Shown here: piece by piece, positions 15,959-44,135 of the stretch
How positions within the stretch are numbered: position 1 is the stretch's first letter
Layout of the letters: each line of letters opens with the position of its first letter
Assembly: GCA_035325995.1 (NCBI GenBank)
Contig: DAOKYU010000008.1
Span: forward strand, 6,897 to 70,896
DNA length: 64,000 nt
Direction: 5' to 3'
DNA from: Thermodesulfobacteriota bacterium
GTDB lineage: Bacteria > Desulfobacterota_D > UBA1144 > Nemesobacterales > UBA2774
Notes under the pieces: generated by a model
What the model was told of the DNA's origin: nothing
What the model saw: the letters and a program-made list of their open reading frames with translations, nothing else
Databases searched by the model: none
Made by a program: the position numbers and the translations under genes

Positions 15959-17221
15959 CTAATATACCGCCTGTGAAAAATAGCTTTTAAATTCGGCCGG
16001 TTTCATGTTCGCGGCCCTGGCGAGAGCGGCCAGTTTTTTCCTGTCCGTAAGGTCGTCTTCCCTCAGTTTTATCATGTACCTGTCCGCCACTTCATAGGCT
16101 TCCGTCCTGACGTCGACGAACCTTATCCTGGCCCTGTCCTTAACGGGGTCTATCATCTCCGAAAAGTCTATAGGCACCATTTTTCCCGTCTGGATGGTTA
16201 TGAGCGCCCCCGTGCCGCCGCCCATGAGGAACTTCACGGCGCTGTACCCGAGCTCCCGGGTGTACTTGGCGTCGAACGGAATAGGCGGGGCCGACCTCAG
16301 CTCGTACCCTATCACCTTGTCTATTACCCTTACGTCGATACCCTTTTCGGAGAGGGCCTTCATCGTCCTCTCCTTCAGGAACTCGCCGATATCCACCTCG
16401 GACAGCCTGAGGCGTCCGAACTCGTCCCTCTCCAGGTCCTGCAGCTCCTTTAAATCCTCCTCGTCGAGCTTCTCGGTAAGCCCCTCTGCGAGTATGGCGA
16501 CCCCGTCCGTCCTGCCCATGGCGAGCCTCTTGATTATCGCCCCTTCGAGCTTCGTAACCAGCTTCGAGAGCCTTACCTTCCCCCTCCCGAACTCCTCGGG
16601 TATCACGGTCAGCGTCGCGCCCGACGCCTTCCCGATCCCGAGCGCCAGGTGCCCGGTGAGCCTCCCCATCGTCACGACGAAATACCACCTCCCCGTGGTC
16701 TTCGCATCCTCCATCAGGTAATGGACGAGCCTCGTCCCTATGTGCCGGGCGGTCTCGTATCCGAACGTCGGAATATACGACGGTATAAGGATATTGTTGT
16801 CTATGGTCTTCGGCACGTGCGCGACCCTCAGCTTTCCCCCGGCCGCCTTTTCGAGCTTGTTCGCGAGACACATCGTCCCGTCCCCGCCGACGGTTATCAC
16901 GTACCCGACACCGAGCCCGAATAGTCCCTTCAGCGTATTTCTCATCCTCTCGGGAGAAGTCGTCGGGTTCGCCCTCGAGATGCCTATTATCGAGCCGCCC
17001 GTGTGGTGTATCCTCGAAGTGTTGTGGATGCCCAGCTTCTCCACGTGCGTCGCGTCCCCCTCGGCCAGCCACTTGAACCCGTCCCTTATCCCCACGACCT
17101 CGACGCCCCTGTTCGCGGCCTCTATGGTCGCTGCGCTTATGACGCCGTTTATACCCGGCGCGGGGCCTCCGCCTACGACTATCGCGATGCGTTTTCCCGT
17201 TTTCCTTTTAGCGTGAGCCAT
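15959..17221 (-). CDS. pfk: 6-phosphofructokinase (group III, possibly PPi-dependent)
   Basis: KRIAIVVGGGPAPGINGVISAATIEA...ITVGGDGTM...PKTIDNN are the PFK motifs. 420 aa. Confidence 0.85.
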   Translation of the reverse strand: MAHAKRKTGKRIAIVVGGGPAPGINGVISAATIEAANRGVEVVGIRDGFKWLAEGDATHVEKLGIHNTSRIHHTGGSIIGISRANPTTSPERMRNTLKGLFGLGVGYVITVGGDGTMCLANKLEKAAGGKLRVAHVPKTIDNNILIPSYIPTFGYETARHIGTRLVHYLMEDAKTTGRWYFVVTMGRLTGHLALGIGKASGATLTVIPEEFGRGKVRLSKLVTKLEGAIIKRLAMGRTDGVAILAEGLTEKLDEEDLKELQDLERDEFGRLRLSEVDIGEFLKERTMKALSEKGIDVRVIDKVIGYELRSAPPIPFDAKYTRELGYSAVKFLMGGGTGALITIQTGKMVPIDFSEMIDPVKDRARIRFVDVRTEAYEVADRYMIKLREDDLTDRKKLAALARAANMKPAEFKSYFSQAVY

Positions 17222-18649: not shown

Positions 18650-19807
18650 ATGGGAGTCAAAGACCTTACCTCCGGCATAAAACGTCACGCCCGCTCTCTC
18701 GGGTTCGACCTCGTTGGCGTATCCCCTGCGGGCCCTCTCCCCGACGGCCGGCGCTACAAGGAATGGCTCTCAAGGGGGCACGCGGGTAAGATGCATTATC
18801 TCGAGCGGCGCGTGGAGAGGCGCGAGGACGTGCGCAACATACTCCCCGGCGCAAAGTCCGTCATAACGTGCGGGCTCAACTACAACACCGATACGCCGTA
18901 TTCGACGGCCTGCGGCGACAGCCGCAGGGGATGGATAGCGCGCTACGCCTGGGGCGACGACTACCACGACGTGATGGATGAGAAGCTGTCGTCCCTCTCC
19001 GGCTTCATACGCGCCGAAACGTCCGGCTCCGCCGGGATCGTGCGATACTCCGACACGGGTCCCGTCCTCGAAAGGGCGCACGCGAGATACGGCGGCATCG
19101 GCTGGATAGGCAAGAACACCTGCCTCATAAACCAGGAGACGGGCTCGTGGATATTCCTCGGCGAGCTCATAACGGACATCGAGCTCGAATACGACTCACC
19201 TGCCCCCGACAGATGCGGCACGTGCACGAGATGCATCGACGCCTGCCCGACGGACGCGCTCACCGGGCCCTACACGCTCGACTCACGTCTCTGCATCTCC
19301 TACCTCACGATAGAGCTCAAGGACAGTATGCCGTTCGATCTCCGGGACAAGACGGGCTCCAATATATTCGGCTGCGACATCTGCCAGGACGTCTGCCCGT
19401 GGAACAGGAAGGCCCCGGTAACGGACGAAGCCTCGTTCCGGCCCCGGCCCGGCCTCTATAATCCGGGTCTCGACTCCATAGTCTCCCTCGGCCCCGAAGA
19501 GTTCAGGGCGCTCTTCAAGGGGAGCCCGGTAAAGCGCGCCAAGCGAAGGGGGCTCCTCCGGAACGCCCTCGTCGCCATCGGGAATTCGGGCGACCCCTCT
19601 TTCGTCCCCGTCGTCACGGAGCGCCTAGGCGACGAAGAGCCGCTCGTCAGGACTCACGCCGCCTGGGCCCTCTGGAAGCTCGAAGGGAAGGGCGCGCTCG
19701 GCCCGCTCCTCCGCCTGAAAGTATCCGAAGAAGACCCGTCGGTCCTCGAAGAGATCGATCACCTCCTCCGGCTTATCGACGGCTACGGGCTCGAAGCCTC
19801 GGGGTAA
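18650..19807 (+). CDS. queG: tRNA epoxyqueuosine(34) reductase
   Basis: Two 4Fe-4S cysteine clusters (CGTCTRCIDACPTDA, CDICQDVCPWN) and C-terminal HEAT-like repeats, as in QueG. Confidence 0.88.
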   Translation: MGVKDLTSGIKRHARSLGFDLVGVSPAGPLPDGRRYKEWLSRGHAGKMHYLERRVERREDVRNILPGAKSVITCGLNYNTDTPYSTACGDSRRGWIARYAWGDDYHDVMDEKLSSLSGFIRAETSGSAGIVRYSDTGPVLERAHARYGGIGWIGKNTCLINQETGSWIFLGELITDIELEYDSPAPDRCGTCTRCIDACPTDALTGPYTLDSRLCISYLTIELKDSMPFDLRDKTGSNIFGCDICQDVCPWNRKAPVTDEASFRPRPGLYNPGLDSIVSLGPEEFRALFKGSPVKRAKRRGLLRNALVAIGNSGDPSFVPVVTERLGDEEPLVRTHAAWALWKLEGKGALGPLLRLKVSEEDPSVLEEIDHLLRLIDGYGLEASG

Positions 19808-25507: not shown

Positions 25508-26347
25508 GTGAAGATTCTCGTAGTTGTCAGCCAGACACAAGATACGGAAGCCAAGATCAAAGTATCCTCGTCGGGCGATTCCGTGGACACGAGCGGCATG
25601 AAGTGGATCATGAATCCCTACGACGAGTTCGCGGTCGAAGAGGCGATTCAAACCAAGGAAAAGCACGGCGGTGAAGTGGTAATCGTATCCATGGGCCCGG
25701 CAAGGGTAGTGGAGACGATACGTCAGGCACTCGCAATGGGCGCCGACAGCGCAATACATATCGCGGACGACAGCTTCTCCGACATCGACTCCTTCGCGGT
25801 TGGCAAGGTCATAGCCGGCGAGATCAAAAAATCGGGCGAGTTCGACGTCATCTTCACGGGCATGAAGATAATCGACGAGGAATCCGGCCAGGTCGGAGTC
25901 CAGATAGCCGAAGAGCTCGGCATTCCGCACGTCTCCCTCGTGAGCAAGGTGGTCGATATAGACCCGGCGGCCAAAAAGGCGGTCTGCCAGAAGGAAATCG
26001 ACGGCGGTCACATGGTCGTCGAGGTCCAGCTCCCGTGCCTCATCACCTGCCCCGACGCCATGAACGAGCCCAGATACGCATCCCTCCCCGGCATCATGAA
26101 GGCCAAGAAGAAGCCGCTAAAGGAAGTCGCCATAGGCGACATCAACCTCGAAGAGCTCGGCCTCACGGCGGATTCCCTCGGCAAGGCCGGGGCCCGGGTC
26201 AGGACGGTCGAGATCAAGGTCCCCGAGATTCAGAGGAAGCTCAAGATCATAAAGGGGCAGGACGAGCCCATGGTCAAGGGCGCCGAAGTCGAGAACGCGG
26301 CCGAAGAGCTCGTAAAGCTCTTAAGGGAAGAGGCCAAGGTCATATAG
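25508..26347 (+). CDS. etfB: electron transfer flavoprotein beta subunit
   Basis: MKILVVVSQTQDTEAKIKV... is EtfB. GTG start, preceded by GGAGGT. Confidence 0.9.
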   Translation: MKILVVVSQTQDTEAKIKVSSSGDSVDTSGMKWIMNPYDEFAVEEAIQTKEKHGGEVVIVSMGPARVVETIRQALAMGADSAIHIADDSFSDIDSFAVGKVIAGEIKKSGEFDVIFTGMKIIDEESGQVGVQIAEELGIPHVSLVSKVVDIDPAAKKAVCQKEIDGGHMVVEVQLPCLITCPDAMNEPRYASLPGIMKAKKKPLKEVAIGDINLEELGLTADSLGKAGARVRTVEIKVPEIQRKLKIIKGQDEPMVKGAEVENAAEELVKLLREEAKVI

Positions 26348-26377
26348 GGCCTCATAAACACATTCAGGAGGAATCAA

Positions 26378-27373
26378 ATGAGCAGCGAAATCTGGGTAGT
26401 GGCAGACCTCAAAATCGACGGCAGCATAAGGCAGGTCACGTTCGAGGCCCTGTCCGAGGCGAAGGCGAAGCTCGCGGGTAAATTCGGCGGGCCGGTTTGC
26501 GGCGTGCTTATCGGCGCGAACGTATCCTCCCTCGCGGGCGAGCTCGGCAAATACGGGGCCGAAAAGGTCTACGTCGTCGAAAACGAAACTCTAAAGGATT
26601 TTAACACCGAAGGCTACACGATAGCTCTTTCAGAGCTCATAAAAAAATATCAGCCGGCCGTGGTCATGACGGGCAACACCGTCTTCGGGCAGGACTACTT
26701 CCCCGGGGTCGCCGCGCGCGTCGGCGCCGGCGTAACCATGGACGCCATAGAAGTAGAGGCCACCGACGACAAGAAGCTTCAAATAAAACGCTTCTCCCAT
26801 TCGAGTAAGGCGATACCGACGAAGCTCTTCCTCGATCATTATCCGATGATGACGACGGTAAGGCCGAATTCCTTTAAAGCCGTCGAAGACCCGAAGACCC
26901 CCGAGGTCATAAACGAGGCTGTAGCGATCAACCCCGGCGACATCAAAACGAAGGTTATAGAGATAAAGGCCAAGGAATCCGACAGGCCCGAGCTCACCGA
27001 GGCCGACAGGGTCGTTTCCGGCGGAAGGGGGCTCGGAAGCGAGGAGAACTTCAAGCACGTCTACGAGCTCGCCGACATACTCGGCGCGGCGGTCGGCGCC
27101 ACGAGGGCGGCGGTCGACGCGGGCTACTGCCCCTACGACATGCAGGTCGGGCAGACGGGCAAGGCCGTGTCGCCCAACCTCTACATCGCAATCGCCATAT
27201 CCGGCTCTGTGCAGCACTTCGCCGGAATGGGCTCCTCGAAGGTCATCGTCGCTATAAACAAGGACCCCGAAGCACCGATATTCCAGAAATGCGACTACGG
27301 CATAGTGGGCGATCTTTTCGACGTGCTCCCGCCGTTCACGGCTAAAGTTAAGAGCCTTATTTCTCAAAGCTGA
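26378..27373 (+). CDS. etfA: electron transfer flavoprotein alpha subunit
   Basis: FAD-binding C-terminal domain (RVVSGGRGLGSEENF...PNLYIAIAISGSVQHFAGM). Confidence 0.9.
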   Translation: MSSEIWVVADLKIDGSIRQVTFEALSEAKAKLAGKFGGPVCGVLIGANVSSLAGELGKYGAEKVYVVENETLKDFNTEGYTIALSELIKKYQPAVVMTGNTVFGQDYFPGVAARVGAGVTMDAIEVEATDDKKLQIKRFSHSSKAIPTKLFLDHYPMMTTVRPNSFKAVEDPKTPEVINEAVAINPGDIKTKVIEIKAKESDRPELTEADRVVSGGRGLGSEENFKHVYELADILGAAVGATRAAVDAGYCPYDMQVGQTGKAVSPNLYIAIAISGSVQHFAGMGSSKVIVAINKDPEAPIFQKCDYGIVGDLFDVLPPFTAKVKSLISQS

Positions 27374-39500: not shown

Positions 39501-39546
39501 ATCACTTTAGACAGAGCCCTGCCAAACCATAATGAGGAGGAGTCTC

Positions 39547-40332
39547 ATGGGATTCAAATACATACAGTTTCAAAAGGAGCCTAACGGCATCGGCATTCTG
39601 ACCATTAACAGGCCGAACGTCCTGAATGCCCTTAACTGGGATACGCTCAGCGAGCTTAAGGTATTCCTCGAAGACATACTTCCCGGTGAGGAATTAAAAG
39701 CGCTCATCGTCACGGGTGCCGGGGAAAAGGCCTTCGTCGCCGGCGCCGACATCGCGCAGATGAACGAAATGAAAGAGAGGGACTTCCAGGAGTACGTCGA
39801 TACAGCGCACAGGGTATACGAGCTCATCGAAAACAGCTCCTGCCCCTCGATCGCGGCCATTAACGGCTACGCCCTCGGGGGCGGCTGCGAGCTTGCCCTC
39901 GCGTGCGACATAAGGATAGCGTCCGAAAAGGCCCGGCTCGGATTCCCCGAGGTAAAGCTCGGCATATTCCCGGGATGGGGCGGCACGCAGCGCGTAACGA
40001 GGGTCCTCGGCCTCGGGAAAACGAAGGAGCTCGTATTCACGGGCGAGATGATCGACGCCAACGAAGCCCTCAGGATCGGCCTCGTCGAAAAGGTCGTCCC
40101 CCACGACGAAGTGATGAAGGAAGCGAGAGACCTGGCCGGCGCGATAGCCAAAAGGGGCCCCATTGCAGTCAGGATGTCCAAGACCGCCATTAACGCCGGC
40201 TCCGAAATGGACCTTCAGAAGGCGCTCCTTCTCGAAAAGACGCTCGTCTCCCTCTGCTTCGACTCCGAGGACAGGATAGAGGGCATGAACGCCTTTCTCG
40301 AAAAGAGAGAGCCCCTCTTTACCGGCAGATAA
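39547..40332 (+). CDS. enoyl-CoA hydratase (crotonase family)
   Basis: ILTINRPNVLNALN...VTGAGEKAFVAGADI...INGYALGGGCELALACDIRIA is the crotonase signature. RBS GGAGGAG. Confidence 0.88.
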   Translation: MGFKYIQFQKEPNGIGILTINRPNVLNALNWDTLSELKVFLEDILPGEELKALIVTGAGEKAFVAGADIAQMNEMKERDFQEYVDTAHRVYELIENSSCPSIAAINGYALGGGCELALACDIRIASEKARLGFPEVKLGIFPGWGGTQRVTRVLGLGKTKELVFTGEMIDANEALRIGLVEKVVPHDEVMKEARDLAGAIAKRGPIAVRMSKTAINAGSEMDLQKALLLEKTLVSLCFDSEDRIEGMNAFLEKREPLFTGR

Positions 40333-40544
40333 TACGATAACGAGCTCGCCGGTCCGTGTCCGCACGGGCCGGTGCCCAAAGCCTTTCCTCCACCTTCCGG
40401 CGGGCTGTTCCGAGCGCCGGGATCTTTCCCCACTTGATGCCCGTTTTGCCCGCACGTATTCAGGTTGACAAAAAAACCATTAGGAATAAAATCTATAATC
40501 CTCAGTTTTCACAGCGGAAATTCACGGAGTCCGGGAGGTTTTCG

Positions 40545-41300
40545 ATGCTTGAACAGATGCACGATTTGAGCGGCAAGGTTGCCGTAGTGACCGGTGGGTC
40601 GAGGGGTATAGGAAAGTCCATTTCCCTGGCTCTGGCCGAAGCCGGCGCCGATATACTCCTTAACTATTCCCGCAGCGACAAGGAAGCCGACAAGATAAAA
40701 AAGGAGATCGAAAAGCTCGGCCGCAAATGTGTGACGGTAAGGGCGAACGTCGCGAATTTCCAGCAGGCCCAGGGCCTCGGCCTCGCCGCGAAGAACCACT
40801 TCGGCCGCGTCGACATACTCGTCAACAACGCCGGCATCAACCGCGACAGGACGCTCAAGAGAATGACTTTCGAGCAGTGGAACGAGGTAATACAAACGAA
40901 CCTTTCGAGCGTCTTTAACTGCACCAAGGCCGTCCTCGACCTCATGTCCGAGCACGGCGGCGCAATTATTTCCATATCCTCCATCATCGGCGAGATGGGT
41001 AACCTCGGCCAGTGTAACTACGCTGCGACAAAGGCGGGCATCATCGGGTTCACGAAAACGATGGCGAAGGAGCTCGCCAAGAGCAATATACGCGTAAACG
41101 CCATAGCCCCGGGCTTCGTCGAAACGGACATGCTCGGGACCGTCCCCGAGGACATCCGCGATCAGATTAAAAAGGAGATTGCGCTCGGCAGGTTCGGCAC
41201 CCCCGAAGAAATCGCCATGGCCGTTGTCTATCTATCCTCTCCGGCCGCGAGCTGGATAACGGGCGTAACGCTCCGTATAAACGGCGGGCACTACATCTAA
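40545..41300 (+). CDS. fabG: 3-oxoacyl-[ACP]/acetoacetyl-CoA reductase (SDR family; FabG/PhaB-like)
   Basis: TGGSRGIGKSI cofactor motif, NNAG, and the catalytic S...YxxxK (NYAATKAG). I place the start at the ATG at 40545 after GGGAGG; the ORF-track start at 40356 looks like an over-extension. Confidence 0.88.
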   Translation: MLEQMHDLSGKVAVVTGGSRGIGKSISLALAEAGADILLNYSRSDKEADKIKKEIEKLGRKCVTVRANVANFQQAQGLGLAAKNHFGRVDILVNNAGINRDRTLKRMTFEQWNEVIQTNLSSVFNCTKAVLDLMSEHGGAIISISSIIGEMGNLGQCNYAATKAGIIGFTKTMAKELAKSNIRVNAIAPGFVETDMLGTVPEDIRDQIKKEIALGRFGTPEEIAMAVVYLSSPAASWITGVTLRINGGHYI

Positions 41301-41334: not shown

Positions 41335-41365
41335 AAAGCGGCGGCTTATAAGCCGCCGCTTTTTT
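41335..41365. terminator. bidirectional intrinsic terminator between fabG (+) and phaC (-)
   Basis: GCGGCGGCTT-ATA-AGCCGCCGC hairpin, flanked by AAA upstream and TTTTTT downstream. Confidence 0.65.
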
Positions 41366-41386: not shown

Positions 41387-42460
41387 TCAGTTAGACCTTT
41401 CTATAATCCAGTCGGAAACTTCAGGCCATAGCCCCTTTAGCGATTTTCCGCTCACGGAAAGCCCTATGTGCCCGGCGGGGAAGACGATGGTCTTCTTGTC
41501 CTTGCTTGAGACGAGGTCGTTGAAAACTATGCTCGACGCCGGCGGCACCAGGTGGTCGTTTTCGGCTATCAGGTTGAGGACGGGACACGTTATATCTTTC
41601 AGGTGAACCGGCTTTCCGTTTATCTTGAGCTTGTCCTCGACGAGCTGGTTCTCCTGATACAGGTACTTTATGAACTCCCTGTATACCTCGCCCGCGACGG
41701 GTATGTTGTCGTTGAGCCACTTTTCCATGGCGAGGAAGCTCTCCAGGAAAGCCTCGTTGTCAACGTTCTCGTAAAAGTTCACGTATTTCGAAACGAGGTT
41801 CTGTATCGGCTTCATTATAAGAAATCCCGATTGGAGGAAATCGGCCGGCGCATTGCCGTAAGCGTCGACGAACTTGTCCACGTTGAAATTCGGCCTGTCG
41901 CCCCACAAATTAAGCGTGCCGTCCACCTTAAAATCTATGCCGGCGGTCATGAGTATCAGGTTCCTCACCTCTTCGGGGTGAAGCGCGGTGTACATGGCCG
42001 ACATGGTCCCTCCCATGCAGTATCCGAGTATGTTCACCTTGTCCGAGCCCGAGTGCTTCTTCACCCTCTGCACTACCTTGTGTATGTATCTGTTTATGTA
42101 GTGGTTGAGGTCGAGGTCCTTGTCCTCGTCTCCGGGCGAGCCCCAGTCTATGAGATAAACCGGGATCCCCTTTTTAAGGAGCACCTCGACGACGCTTCTT
42201 CCGGGCATGAGGTCGAGTATGTAGGGTCTGTTAACGAGTGCGAATACCAGTATGAGGGGCGTTGAGCAGGCTTCCTCCGTCTGCGGGTAATAGTGCAGGA
42301 GCCTCAGCTTGTTCTCGGTGAATATCACCTCGTGCGGGCTCGTGCCCACTTCGACGTCCGGCGGATTTAGAAGCGTTATGTCGAGCGCCTTCAGGAATTT
42401 CTCCCTCGCCTTCTCTACTTTGTCTAAAGCTGGAATGAATTTTGTGGATTTTATCGTCAT
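41387..42460 (-). CDS. phaC: poly(3-hydroxyalkanoate) synthase catalytic subunit, class III/IV
   Basis: 357 aa, lipase box GYCMGG, collinear with class III PhaC (LILVFALVNRPYILDL...VYLIDWG...DITCPVLN...PAGHIG). Confidence 0.88.
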   Translation of the reverse strand: MTIKSTKFIPALDKVEKAREKFLKALDITLLNPPDVEVGTSPHEVIFTENKLRLLHYYPQTEEACSTPLILVFALVNRPYILDLMPGRSVVEVLLKKGIPVYLIDWGSPGDEDKDLDLNHYINRYIHKVVQRVKKHSGSDKVNILGYCMGGTMSAMYTALHPEEVRNLILMTAGIDFKVDGTLNLWGDRPNFNVDKFVDAYGNAPADFLQSGFLIMKPIQNLVSKYVNFYENVDNEAFLESFLAMEKWLNDNIPVAGEVYREFIKYLYQENQLVEDKLKINGKPVHLKDITCPVLNLIAENDHLVPPASSIVFNDLVSSKDKKTIVFPAGHIGLSVSGKSLKGLWPEVSDWIIERSN

Positions 42461-42540
42461 TTTTTTTCGGCCTCCCCGGCCCTTGATTTTTGAATGCCGG
42501 CCGTGCGTCGTATGAAATTACGGATATGAGCGGTGCCCGT

Positions 42541-42993
42541 TTATTTCTTCTTCCGCGTGCTTGCGGCGGGCGGCGGTGTGCTTACATCGTCCAGCTTGTC
42601 GGTAAGATCGTTGATTTTTTCCTCGAGGTTGTTTATCGAAGAGAGCACACGCTCAATGTCGGTCTTGGTCGGGAACCTCATGTTCCTGAGCACCTTCTCG
42701 GCGGCTTCGTCGAAGCGCTTCTTGAGGTCGGACGATCCCTCGACGGCCTTTCCTATGTTTGCGGCGAAAAGGGGGCTGTTCACCCACTTCTCCAGTATCT
42801 CCGAGGACGATTTTTCCCAGGCGTCGTAAAACTTTTTATACTGCTCCATGGGGTCGTAATCTTCCGCCTCTTCGACGCCGGTTTTTACGATCGGGTTTTT
42901 CTTCCACACGTCCATGGCCTCGGACATGGTCTTTTCCCACGCCTCGTAAAGTTTCTTGTATTGCTCTGAATAATCGAAGCTTTCGCTGCTCAT
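42541..42993 (-). CDS. PhaE/PhaR-like PHA synthase accessory subunit (paralog 2, internally duplicated N-motif)
   Basis: Two copies of the Trp-rich motif (EQYKKLYEAWEKTMSEAMDVWKKNPI / EQYKKFYDAWEKSSSEILEKWVNSPL), then a coiled coil and a Lys-rich tail. Sits immediately upstream of phaC on the same strand. Confidence 0.6.
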   Translation of the reverse strand: MSSESFDYSEQYKKLYEAWEKTMSEAMDVWKKNPIVKTGVEEAEDYDPMEQYKKFYDAWEKSSSEILEKWVNSPLFAANIGKAVEGSSDLKKRFDEAAEKVLRNMRFPTKTDIERVLSSINNLEEKINDLTDKLDDVSTPPPAASTRKKK

Positions 42994-43361
42994 TATTTCT
43001 TCTCCTTGGCTTTTCTCGCCGGTTTCTTGGCCGCGGTTCTCTCGGTCGCGGTCTTGGCGGGCCTCGACTCAAGGCCCGCTATCTTCTGTTCGAGCTCGGC
43101 TATTTTCGCTTCGAGCGAGTCTATCGTATCAACCAGGCGGTCCATCTCCATCCTTTGGGGCGAGCACCTGGTTTCGAGCGTCTGCTCTATAAAGCCGTGT
43201 ATGTAGTCCTTGAACTCCGACGATTTTTCGACAGCCCTGTCCATGAGCGGGCTGTTCATCCATACGTCCATCATCTTGTTCGTGGACTCTTCCCACGATT
43301 CGTAGAGTTTCTTGAAGTATCCGAAGTAATACATTTCGGCGTACTCTTTCTGTTTGCTCAC
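42993..43361 (-). CDS. PhaE/PhaR-like PHA synthase accessory subunit (paralog 1)
   Basis: Single copy of the same motif (FKKLYESWEESTNKMMDVWMNSPL), a coiled coil, and a K/A-rich basic tail (AKKPARKAKEKK). Confidence 0.6.
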   Translation of the reverse strand: MSKQKEYAEMYYFGYFKKLYESWEESTNKMMDVWMNSPLMDRAVEKSSEFKDYIHGFIEQTLETRCSPQRMEMDRLVDTIDSLEAKIAELEQKIAGLESRPAKTATERTAAKKPARKAKEKK

Positions 43362-43462
43362 TACTTACCTCCGGCCCGATCGGCCATCCGATTTTATAAA
43401 CTCGCTACCTATATTATACTATATAACCCCGTCCGGGGAGAAACCCCCGGGCCAGGTCTTAT

Positions 43463-43885
43463 TTAATGCGAGAGCGAGCTCACGAACCTGTCCATGGCGG
43501 AAAAAGCCCTCTCCGCCGACTTCTGATTCAGGTCCAGTAATTCCTTCGTATAATTGTCGGAGGCTTTCTTAACGGCCGCGAAGCATCTGTTCTGGATTTC
43601 GAGCAGAAGGTCGAGCCCTCCGCCGATGTCCCACCTGGGGTACTCGCCGGGCATCGAGCCGATTGCGGACTTGACCTGCTCGGCGTATTCCTTCTGTATC
43701 CTGTTCAAATGCTCCAGCTGCGAATCCATGAACCGCTTATTCTCCTCTATCAACGAATGAGCAGCGTCGAGTCCTATGAGATAGTTTTCCTTTGCTATCC
43801 CGCTTATCTCTTTAAGAGCCTCACCGGAATTTCCGTTTGTAACCACTTCCGGGGTTACCGTCTTCTGCGCTTTACTTTTCGGCAT
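43463..43885 (-). CDS. phasin-family PHA granule-associated protein
   Basis: 140-aa, largely alpha-helical amphipathic protein at the head of the phaE-phaC gene string. Confidence 0.5.
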   Translation of the reverse strand: MPKSKAQKTVTPEVVTNGNSGEALKEISGIAKENYLIGLDAAHSLIEENKRFMDSQLEHLNRIQKEYAEQVKSAIGSMPGEYPRWDIGGGLDLLLEIQNRCFAAVKKASDNYTKELLDLNQKSAERAFSAMDRFVSSLSH

Positions 43886-44135
43886 GTGTTGACCTCTCCT
43901 TCAGTACAAATATAATCCGGCGAGGTCTTTTGTCAAGATTTTAGTTAGCAGTTGCACAATAATATTTCGTAATGATAGATATAGGATGCGTGCCGGGCTT
44001 TTCTCCAATCATAGCATTAGCGTAATTTCGGGATTTCTTGTGGATACGTGTGTAAACCTTGTTCGGCAGGCCCCGAAAACTGCATATTTGCCGCCGTCCC
44101 TGTAAATGCAGCCTCAAAACGGTAACCATATACCC

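Follow-up and report, generated by a model that had tools for sequence, protein, structure and literature searches.

Two short PhaE-like paralogs precede phaC in a conserved class III-type polyhydroxyalkanoate synthase locus of the Dadabacteria lineage

The stretch of DNA analysed here (hereafter, the window) covers 64,000 nucleotides from a Thermodesulfobacteriota bacterium (GenBank assembly GCA_035325995.1, contig DAOKYU010000008.1, positions 6,897 to 70,896) and carries on its minus strand a locus for the synthesis of polyhydroxyalkanoate (PHA). Four open reading frames (ORFs) follow one another there. The first (43463–43885) encodes an amphipathic, helical protein of 140 aa, which its context and weak Phasin_2 matches in its orthologues mark as a probable phasin or granule-associated protein. 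The second (42993–43361), which starts with GTG and has GGAGG ahead of that start, encodes paralog 1, as we call it, a divergent mini-PhaE-like protein of 122 aa that has a single Trp motif and a coiled coil and ends in a strongly basic tail. The third, paralog 2 (42541–42993), is a more conservative mini-PhaE of 150 aa in which the Trp motif occurs twice; its coiled coil is of the PTKxD form and its basic tail is short. The last (41387–42460) is phaC, the 357-aa catalytic subunit of a class III PHA synthase, as indicated by the TIGR01836 model and by its catalytic residues. An ORF check of the window found all four exactly where the initial annotation had placed them.

The assignment of the region to PHA synthesis was upheld, as PhaC scores 418.5 bits against TIGR01836, the class III PhaC model, for which the cutoff is 365.3. 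Its GYCMGG box holds Cys148, and both Asp302 and His331 are present. We take these residues to correspond to the C149/D302/H331 triad of Allochromatium vinosum. Judged by model score and residues, PhaC is a class III enzyme with an intact Cys-Asp-His signature. Sequence and profile searches of the PDB returned no PhaE or PhaR structure, only class I PhaC.

The two small genes upstream of phaC had been described as diverged paralogs of a PhaE/PhaR module, and our comparisons bear this out. Paralogs 1 and 2 share 31% identity over 97 residues (BLASTP, E=5e-18), and their family profiles align at 99.7% probability (hhalign, E=1.8e-25), with residues 13–112 of paralog 1 matching residues 49–150 of paralog 2. 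The proposal that the Trp motif occurs twice in paralog 2 was likewise confirmed: residues 10–43 and 50–83 form an internal repeat with 44% identity (E=5e-10), a hidden Markov model (HMM) of the motif gives about 60 bits to each copy, and both copies are kept in all 33 aligned orthologues. Similarities of this order lie well outside chance. Copy A spans residues 10–37 (42883–42966, minus strand) and copy B residues 50–78 (42760–42846, minus strand). Copy B is the homologue of the single motif found in paralog 1 and in other mini-PhaEs, and the best-conserved part of paralog 1 is this same motif, which opens the PhaE module. A weak first copy is also seen in P0266 and P0286 from other lineages; the doubling is not unique to the Dadabacteria lineage, but it is strongest there. 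The 140-aa ORF is unrelated to either paralog by sequence comparison.

When compared with curated models, the placement of the small proteins in the PhaE/PhaR family stood for paralog 2 and failed for paralog 1. Paralog 2 scores 35.0 bits against PF09712 (Pfam PHA_synth_III_E), above the gathering score of 25.7, in a match limited to the C-terminal profile positions 188–309 of 311. Paralog 1 falls below every PhaE/PhaR threshold. The protein encoded in the window has no PF09712 match at E<=1, and 12 of 34 paralog 1 orthologues match this model, all below threshold (best E 5.7e-4). Both paralogs fail the full-length PhaE model TIGR01834 (35.2 bits for paralog 2 and 16.7 bits for paralog 1, with a cutoff of 154.95) and are without roughly the N-terminal two thirds of PhaE. 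Against TIGR02132 (phaR_Bmeg, cutoff 148.4), paralog 2 reaches 40 bits over positions 5–97 and fails, and paralog 1 gives no match. Scores against the phasin models were also insufficient, both for paralog 2 (PF05597, 19.2 with a cutoff of 28.8; TIGR01837, 27.6 with a cutoff of 94.7) and for paralog 1 (TIGR01837, 14.2).

An exhaustive HMM search of 1.84 billion representative proteins with the paralog 1 profile matched only 52 proteins. The profile matches P0274, a true PhaE of 397 aa that scores 118 bits with PF09712, on its C-terminal residues 294–395 (E 1.3e-4), and also mini-PhaEs of 109–156 aa that lie above the Pfam threshold. Because of these profile-level matches and of the alignment of the family profiles, and not through any direct threshold, the homology of paralog 1 to the PhaE module can be regarded as secure. 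The common unit in these alignments is a module of about 100 residues, in which a (Y/F)KKFYxxW amphipathic helix is followed by an SP(L/F)FA...GK...S.(E/D)FKK segment, a PT(K/R)xD coiled coil and a basic tail; long PhaE carries this module as its conserved C-terminus. The NCBI annotation of paralog 2 orthologues is PhaE, and several paralog 1 orthologues are annotated by JGI as "PHA synthesis regulator phasin".

A scan of a genome collection holding one genome per species, made with a single-sequence query, returned 19 loci (L001–L019), all from the Dadabacteria lineage. Their host metagenome-assembled genomes (MAGs) are labelled Dadabacteria, "Thermodesulfobacteriota" or, in a few cases, Spirochaetia. 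Paralog 1, paralog 2 and phaC lie side by side in 19/19 of these loci and in the metagenome contig L027; in contig L026 the pair is present and the contig ends before phaC. The full order of 140-aa ORF, paralog 1, paralog 2 and phaC was found by tblastn in all 18 loci with enough upstream DNA, the sequence of L014 beginning inside the pha block. This order persists where identity has dropped to 70–73% for PhaC, 53–55% for paralog 2 and 39–41% for paralog 1. The flanking genes (RF1, CcsA, a periplasmic binding protein and FKBP) are syntenic, where the fetched DNA permits, in the 17 loci besides L017 and L018.

In every locus examined the stop codon of paralog 1 overlaps the start codon of paralog 2, as TAATG, as ATGA or by 8 nucleotides (−1, −4 or −8 nt). 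The window has TAATG at 42991–42995, and the AAGGAG Shine-Dalgarno sequence for paralog 2 (43002–43007, minus strand) lies inside the codons for "KEKK" in the tail of paralog 1. Read from this arrangement, the two paralogs are shown to be translationally coupled. Estimates of dN/dS (Nei-Gojobori) were 0.07–0.21 for the 140-aa ORF, 0.035–0.20 for paralog 1, 0.03–0.12 for paralog 2 and 0.02–0.07 for PhaC, so that the values of the paralogs (0.03–0.2) are comparable to that of PhaC. Orthologue lengths are steady, at about 122 aa for paralog 1 and about 147–150 aa for paralog 2. By these measures, all four are functional genes under purifying selection. We also considered paralog 1 as a decaying duplicate or a spurious ORF; its dN/dS, its steady length and its presence in all loci rule this out. 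Taken from conservation, synteny and substitution rates, the architecture is real, ancient and under selection.

Several irregularities were seen among these loci. L003, L004, L016 and L017 are titled "uncultured Spirochaetia" yet carry the pha block, and L003, L004 and L016 are also flanked by the Dadabacteria-type genes (RF1, CcsA, binding protein, FKBP), with 64–96% protein identity; the four labels are probably binning or taxonomy errors. In L001 (5534–6831) and L014 (1045–2075), PhaC is in two overlapping or interrupted pieces, and in L002 (7664–8459) a crotonase gene of the neighbourhood is split over three frames. These split genes are likely MAG assembly or frameshift errors and not biology.

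The origin of the pair was followed with a neighbour-joining (NJ) tree of the module, a distance method applied to a short alignment of 95 columns. Relative to other mini-PhaEs, paralogs 1 and 2 form one clade with 100% bootstrap, inside which the orphan protein P0254 also falls. Paralog 2 is monophyletic (97% bootstrap), and the paralog 1 and paralog 2 subtrees mirror each other in topology, with longer branches for paralog 1. Single-copy mini-PhaEs fit the HMM of paralog 2 much better than that of paralog 1 (91.6 vs 49.1 bits and 63.8 vs 37.3 bits). The tree and these scores indicate one old, lineage-specific duplication, after which paralog 2 would have remained conservative and paralog 1 diverged. 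Fission of a long PhaE into two genes was ruled out, because it is the same C-terminal module that both proteins match, and because they group with each other and apart from the other mini-PhaEs.

Outside this lineage, a single mini-PhaE was found directly upstream of a class III-type phaC: it has 109 aa in L021, 122 aa in L023/L024 and 109 aa in L028, where its gene overlaps phaC. In L023–L025 the gene before the mini-PhaE is a homologue of the 140-aa ORF (HMM E 3e-7), and on this ground the unit "small helical protein, mini-PhaE, PhaC" is widespread. Among the lineages sampled, the paralog pair occurs only in the Dadabacteria loci and in the two more divergent metagenome contigs, L026 and L027; the single-sequence query of the genome scan, which returned the Dadabacteria lineage alone, leaves room for such pairs in unrelated phyla. 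The initial annotation had called two short copies beside one phaC atypical. The conserved pair is indeed the unusual feature as far as these comparisons go, but shortness is not, because single mini-PhaEs of 109–122 aa adjoin phaC in other lineages and haloarchaeal PhaE has about 180 aa; a short PhaE is ordinary.

Two further arrangements were observed in this survey. A short metagenome contig, L020, carries three small genes in tandem (242–1667): the first (177 aa) weakly resembles the family of the 140-aa ORF, the second (127 aa), rich in Trp, shows no detectable homology, and the third (124 aa) is a double-motif mini-PhaE. Here a pha locus may have acquired an additional small protein independently. 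Orphan mini-PhaE-like genes lie in L030 (5001–5306), L031 (1427–1852), L032 (655–1080) and L029 (616–1071), with CoaBC as neighbour in L030 and a Rieske/cytochrome b operon in L031/L032. Either the orphan module is used outside synthase operons, or phaC lies elsewhere in those genomes.

With regard to helices and charge, the shared coiled coil and K-rich tail attributed to the two paralogs held in part. Both proteins end in a coiled-coil-like amphipathic helix, and all three small proteins of the locus are strongly amphipathic (muH 0.5–0.68; 0.5–0.63 for the 140-aa ORF). Only paralog 1 has a strong tail, its last 25 residues containing 9–13 K/R in every locus; that of paralog 2 is weak (4–5 K/R in the last 15 residues). 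Paralog 1 combines an acidic body (0 to −7) with a tail of +4 to +11 over the last 25 residues, for an overall isoelectric point (pI) of 7.8–9.4, while paralog 2 is acidic (pI 5.0–6.6). The paralog 1 tail is rich in K, R, A, P, T and S; its composition is conserved and its sequence varies between loci. In the divergent paralog 1-type proteins P0244 and P0246, the basic tails are longer still.

The 140-aa ORF that heads the locus is conserved in 18 loci and had been called phasin-like. This description stands on its context and on weak matches of 3/13 orthologues to Phasin_2 (PF09361; best E 4.9e-4), which stay below the threshold; the protein of the window has no Phasin_2 match itself, nor any Pfam or NCBIfam match above threshold. 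Its product is a probable phasin. Upstream of the ORF lies a putative sigma-70-like promoter, P1 (TTGACA-16-TATATT, 43909–43936, minus strand), which agrees with the consensus at 11/12 positions, and CTTGACA-N16/17-TATATT is kept in all loci, the most divergent included. Directly upstream of the −35 box is an imperfect palindrome, TTGTGCAACTGCTAAC, with a GCAAnTGC core (43944–43959, minus strand). It is found once in the window and at the matching position in all loci compared (L001–L019), and is perfect in some, for example as TTCGCAATTGCGAA in L017. The palindrome is a candidate site for a regulator.

Between the 140-aa ORF and paralog 1 we found two further elements on the minus strand. The first is a GC-rich hairpin (43421–43462; −22.6 kcal/mol, z −2.45), which lacks a U-run and which the terminator scan did not report. 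Non-homologous hairpins at the equivalent place are stronger in L017 (z −5.0) and L019 (z −6.1) and not significant in L003 and L008. The hairpin is a possible partial terminator or attenuator. The second is a TATAAT box (43413–43418), a candidate internal promoter, P2, from which paralog 1, paralog 2 and phaC would be transcribed. It has no good −35 box and the promoter scan made no call; GTATAAT is kept across the clade of the window, L005–L013 and L016, which suggests a second promoter. Together, hairpin and GTATAAT may uncouple expression of the phasin-like gene from that of the synthase genes.

At the other end of the locus, a bidirectional intrinsic terminator hairpin (41335–41362; 12-bp stem with 8 GC pairs) separates phaC from a convergent gene on the plus strand (40548–41300), which encodes a FabG/PhaB-like, NADPH-dependent 3-ketoacyl reductase of the short-chain dehydrogenase/reductase (SDR) type. 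This SDR scores 277.5 bits with the acetoacetyl-CoA reductase model TIGR01829 (cutoff 302) and 294.4 with TIGR01830 (cutoff 297.75), and passes the FabG subfamily model NF009466. It is syntenic in 16/19 loci, the exceptions being L017, L018 and L006, which ends just after phaC. The longest ORF starts at a GTG at 40356, and the profile match and the orthologues start at the ATG at 40548; the N-terminal extension of 64 residues (40356–40547) is probably untranslated. Beyond it lies a short-chain enoyl-CoA hydratase of the crotonase family (39532–40332, plus strand, alternative start 39547), with 228.5 bits for PF00378 and 331.6 bits for PRK05809, below the cutoff of 394. It is syntenic in L001–L005 and L007–L015. 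Both genes had been proposed to supply monomers. Their convergent positions were as described, and the SDR is a plausible source that probably supplies (R)-3-hydroxyacyl-CoA. Direct supply by the crotonase did not hold: hydratases of this family make (S)-3-hydroxyacyl-CoA, and because its product is the (S)-enantiomer the enzyme cannot feed PhaC directly. It can do so indirectly, through oxidation to 3-ketoacyl-CoA followed by the reductase. Ten further ORFs of the window were scanned and contained no thiolase, PHA depolymerase or PhaR-type regulator. The window also has the beta and alpha subunits of an electron transfer flavoprotein, a phosphofructokinase and a QueG-like epoxyqueuosine reductase (25508–27373, plus; 15959–17221, minus; and 18650–19807, plus).

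Compared with known systems, the locus is closest in its catalytic part to the PhaEC of the A. vinosum/Synechocystis type, which has the same PhaC of about 355 aa with a lipase-box Cys, Asp and His that passes the class III model, an accessory gene immediately upstream that is co-transcribed, and the C-terminal PhaE module. That type has one PhaE of about 310–400 aa, whereas the window has two proteins of 122 and 150 aa that cover about the last third of the PhaE model. The Bacillus class IV PhaRC resembles the locus in its small accessory subunit and in that paralog 2 matches the PhaR model over its N-terminal half; it differs in that the subunit is single, and paralog 2 remains far below the PhaR model cutoff. 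In Bacillus, phaR and phaC lie apart, with phaB between them. Haloarchaeal PhaEC shares a much shortened PhaE, which at about 180 aa is indispensable and granule-bound (PMC3191746), but it has a single PhaE and a C-terminally extended PhaC of 449–525 aa, whereas the window has a PhaC of ordinary length and two PhaE-like genes. The L021, L023/L024 and L028 loci have the module of about 100 residues directly upstream of phaC, and L023–L025 also the 140-aa-type gene; they differ from the window in having one accessory gene, which as a rule has a single motif. Synthases have been described with one PhaE or PhaR each (10.1101/693432; PMC8312272; PMC3191746). We found no report of two accessory genes beside one phaC, and no locus-level description of PHA or polyhydroxybutyrate (PHB) synthesis in Dadabacteria, in the literature searched.

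Paralog 1 also invites comparison with PhaF of Pseudomonas and PhaM of Ralstonia. PhaF combines a PHA-binding helix, a leucine zipper and a lysine-rich, histone-like tail, binds DNA and segregates granules, and PhaM is similar (PMC5658603). In paralog 1, too, an amphipathic helix comes with a short leucine-zipper-like coil and a basic tail rich in K/A/P/T, e.g. AAKKPARKAKEKK. The protein differs in that this tail has about 25 residues and no tandem AAKP repeats, that the PF05597 and TIGR01837 matches are sub-threshold, and that by descent it is a PhaE paralog.

The reading that we prefer is that of a chromosomal class III-type PHA synthase operon in which the PhaE function would be carried by two short paralogs. 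Paralog 2, which is acidic, has the doubled Trp motif and passes the Pfam threshold, would act as PhaE proper, and paralog 1 would be the faster-evolving copy that has retained a long polybasic tail. Translational coupling would keep the two in fixed proportion, and their coiled coils would join them to each other and to PhaC on the nascent granule. Through its tail, paralog 1 would then anchor the complex to a polyanion, with nucleoid DNA as the likeliest candidate, in the way that PhaF and PhaM do with theirs. The initial annotation had suggested a heteromeric accessory complex or a DNA-binding role of the basic tails, and both ideas would be compatible with these data. The 140-aa protein would be the probable phasin, and the convergent SDR would probably give (R)-3-hydroxyacyl-CoA. 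We are highly confident that the gene identities and their evolutionary history are correct. The full mechanism, a class III synthase with its accessory role split between two co-produced mini-PhaE paralogs of which paralog 1 is possibly a PhaF/PhaM-like tether, seems to us about equally apt to hold or to fail; within it, we infer that the proteins form a physical complex, that either paralog is required for activity and that the tail has the ligand named above.

Several observations weigh against this proposal. Paralog 1 fails every curated PhaE, PhaR and phasin threshold, and its orthologues match the phasin model PF05597 more often than PhaE (24/34 vs 12/34, all sub-threshold). Orphan mini-PhaE-like modules lie away from any phaC in L029, L030 and L031/L032, so the module does not have to serve as part of a synthase. 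Throughout the mini-PhaE family basic tails are frequent, so that the tail of paralog 1 may have no special role; its KEKK part is constrained by the embedded Shine-Dalgarno sequence, and its length of only about 25 residues compares with eight AAKP repeats in PhaF. By inspection of heptads by eye, the e/g charges favour heterodimers no more than homodimers, with two attractive pairs in the heterodimer, four in the paralog 1 homodimer and none in the paralog 2 homodimer. Finally, the AlphaFold2 (AF2) monomer of paralog 2, modelled from a 33-sequence alignment, consists of helices only (pLDDT 55.8, pTM 0.29), a low-confidence model without a reliable tertiary fold. Such low confidence would be expected of a protein that folds on a partner or on the granule.

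The main rival explanation builds on some of the same observations. It holds that only paralog 2 is the PhaE and that paralog 1, a phasin or other granule-associated protein derived from PhaE, coats or positions granules like a PhaF/PhaM in miniature, outside the catalytic complex and without being needed for activity. The excess of PF05597 matches among its orthologues, together with the JGI phasin labels, agrees with this, as do the orphan modules away from phaC, the other lineages in which one mini-PhaE suffices, the faster evolution of paralog 1 and the succession of amphipathic helix, zipper and basic tail, which parallels PhaF. The strict stop/start overlap in every locus, however, suggests stoichiometric partners. 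In addition, the part of paralog 1 that is best conserved is the Trp motif opening the PhaE module, and a separate probable phasin gene already heads the locus. We consider this explanation unlikely, though a serious contender. It overlaps with the split PhaE role that we prefer, and the two differ only on whether paralog 1 contacts PhaC/PhaE and affects activity.

A further possibility would place the locus outside the four current classes. In it, a three-component PHA synthase of Dadabacteria would consist of PhaC and an obligate heterodimer of non-redundant mini-PhaEs, one of which, with the doubled Trp motif, primes or activates the enzyme while the other couples the nascent granule to the nucleoid by means of its polybasic tail. 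We regard this stronger proposal as doubtful.

Retention of the Trp motif and the coiled coil in both paralogs would also fit alternative, interchangeable PhaE subunits, so that PhaC-paralog 1 and PhaC-paralog 2 would be synthase isoforms that differ in properties or regulation, and mixing of subunits does occur, as the Haloferax PhaC paralogs share one PhaE. Co-transcription and translational coupling preclude differential expression of the two copies, however, and neither has been lost in 19 genome loci despite deep divergence, which points to non-redundant roles; such isoforms are quite improbable. Least plausible, and very improbable, is autoregulation of the pha operon as the chief function of paralog 1, which would act as a DNA-binding transcriptional regulator through its basic tail, much like the PhaR/PhaQ/PhaF regulators: this tail, the conserved palindrome upstream of the operon promoter and the influence of PhaF on pha gene expression would agree with this, but Pfam/NCBIfam and family scans found no recognisable sequence-specific DNA-binding domain in paralog 1, the poorly conserved sequence of the tail, kept in composition alone, suits non-specific binding, and nothing connects the palindrome with paralog 1.

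The classes of PHA synthase rest on subunit composition, and classes III and IV have been described with exactly one accessory subunit. Against this background, the locus of the window and the related loci mark out a minimal module, about 100 residues long, which long PhaE, the mini-PhaEs and both paralogs have in common. They also offer a natural case in which this module has been duplicated and specialised, one copy being acidic with a doubled motif and the other bearing a basic tail. Small, tractable constructs follow from it for asking which part of PhaE activates PhaC and which handles the granule surface or localisation. The annotation of paralog 1 orthologues that are now labelled "hypothetical" can be corrected. 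The practical impact would be modest unless a three-component requirement is shown experimentally; if true, a three-component synthase would merge the functions of PhaE and of PhaM/PhaF in one duplicated gene family.

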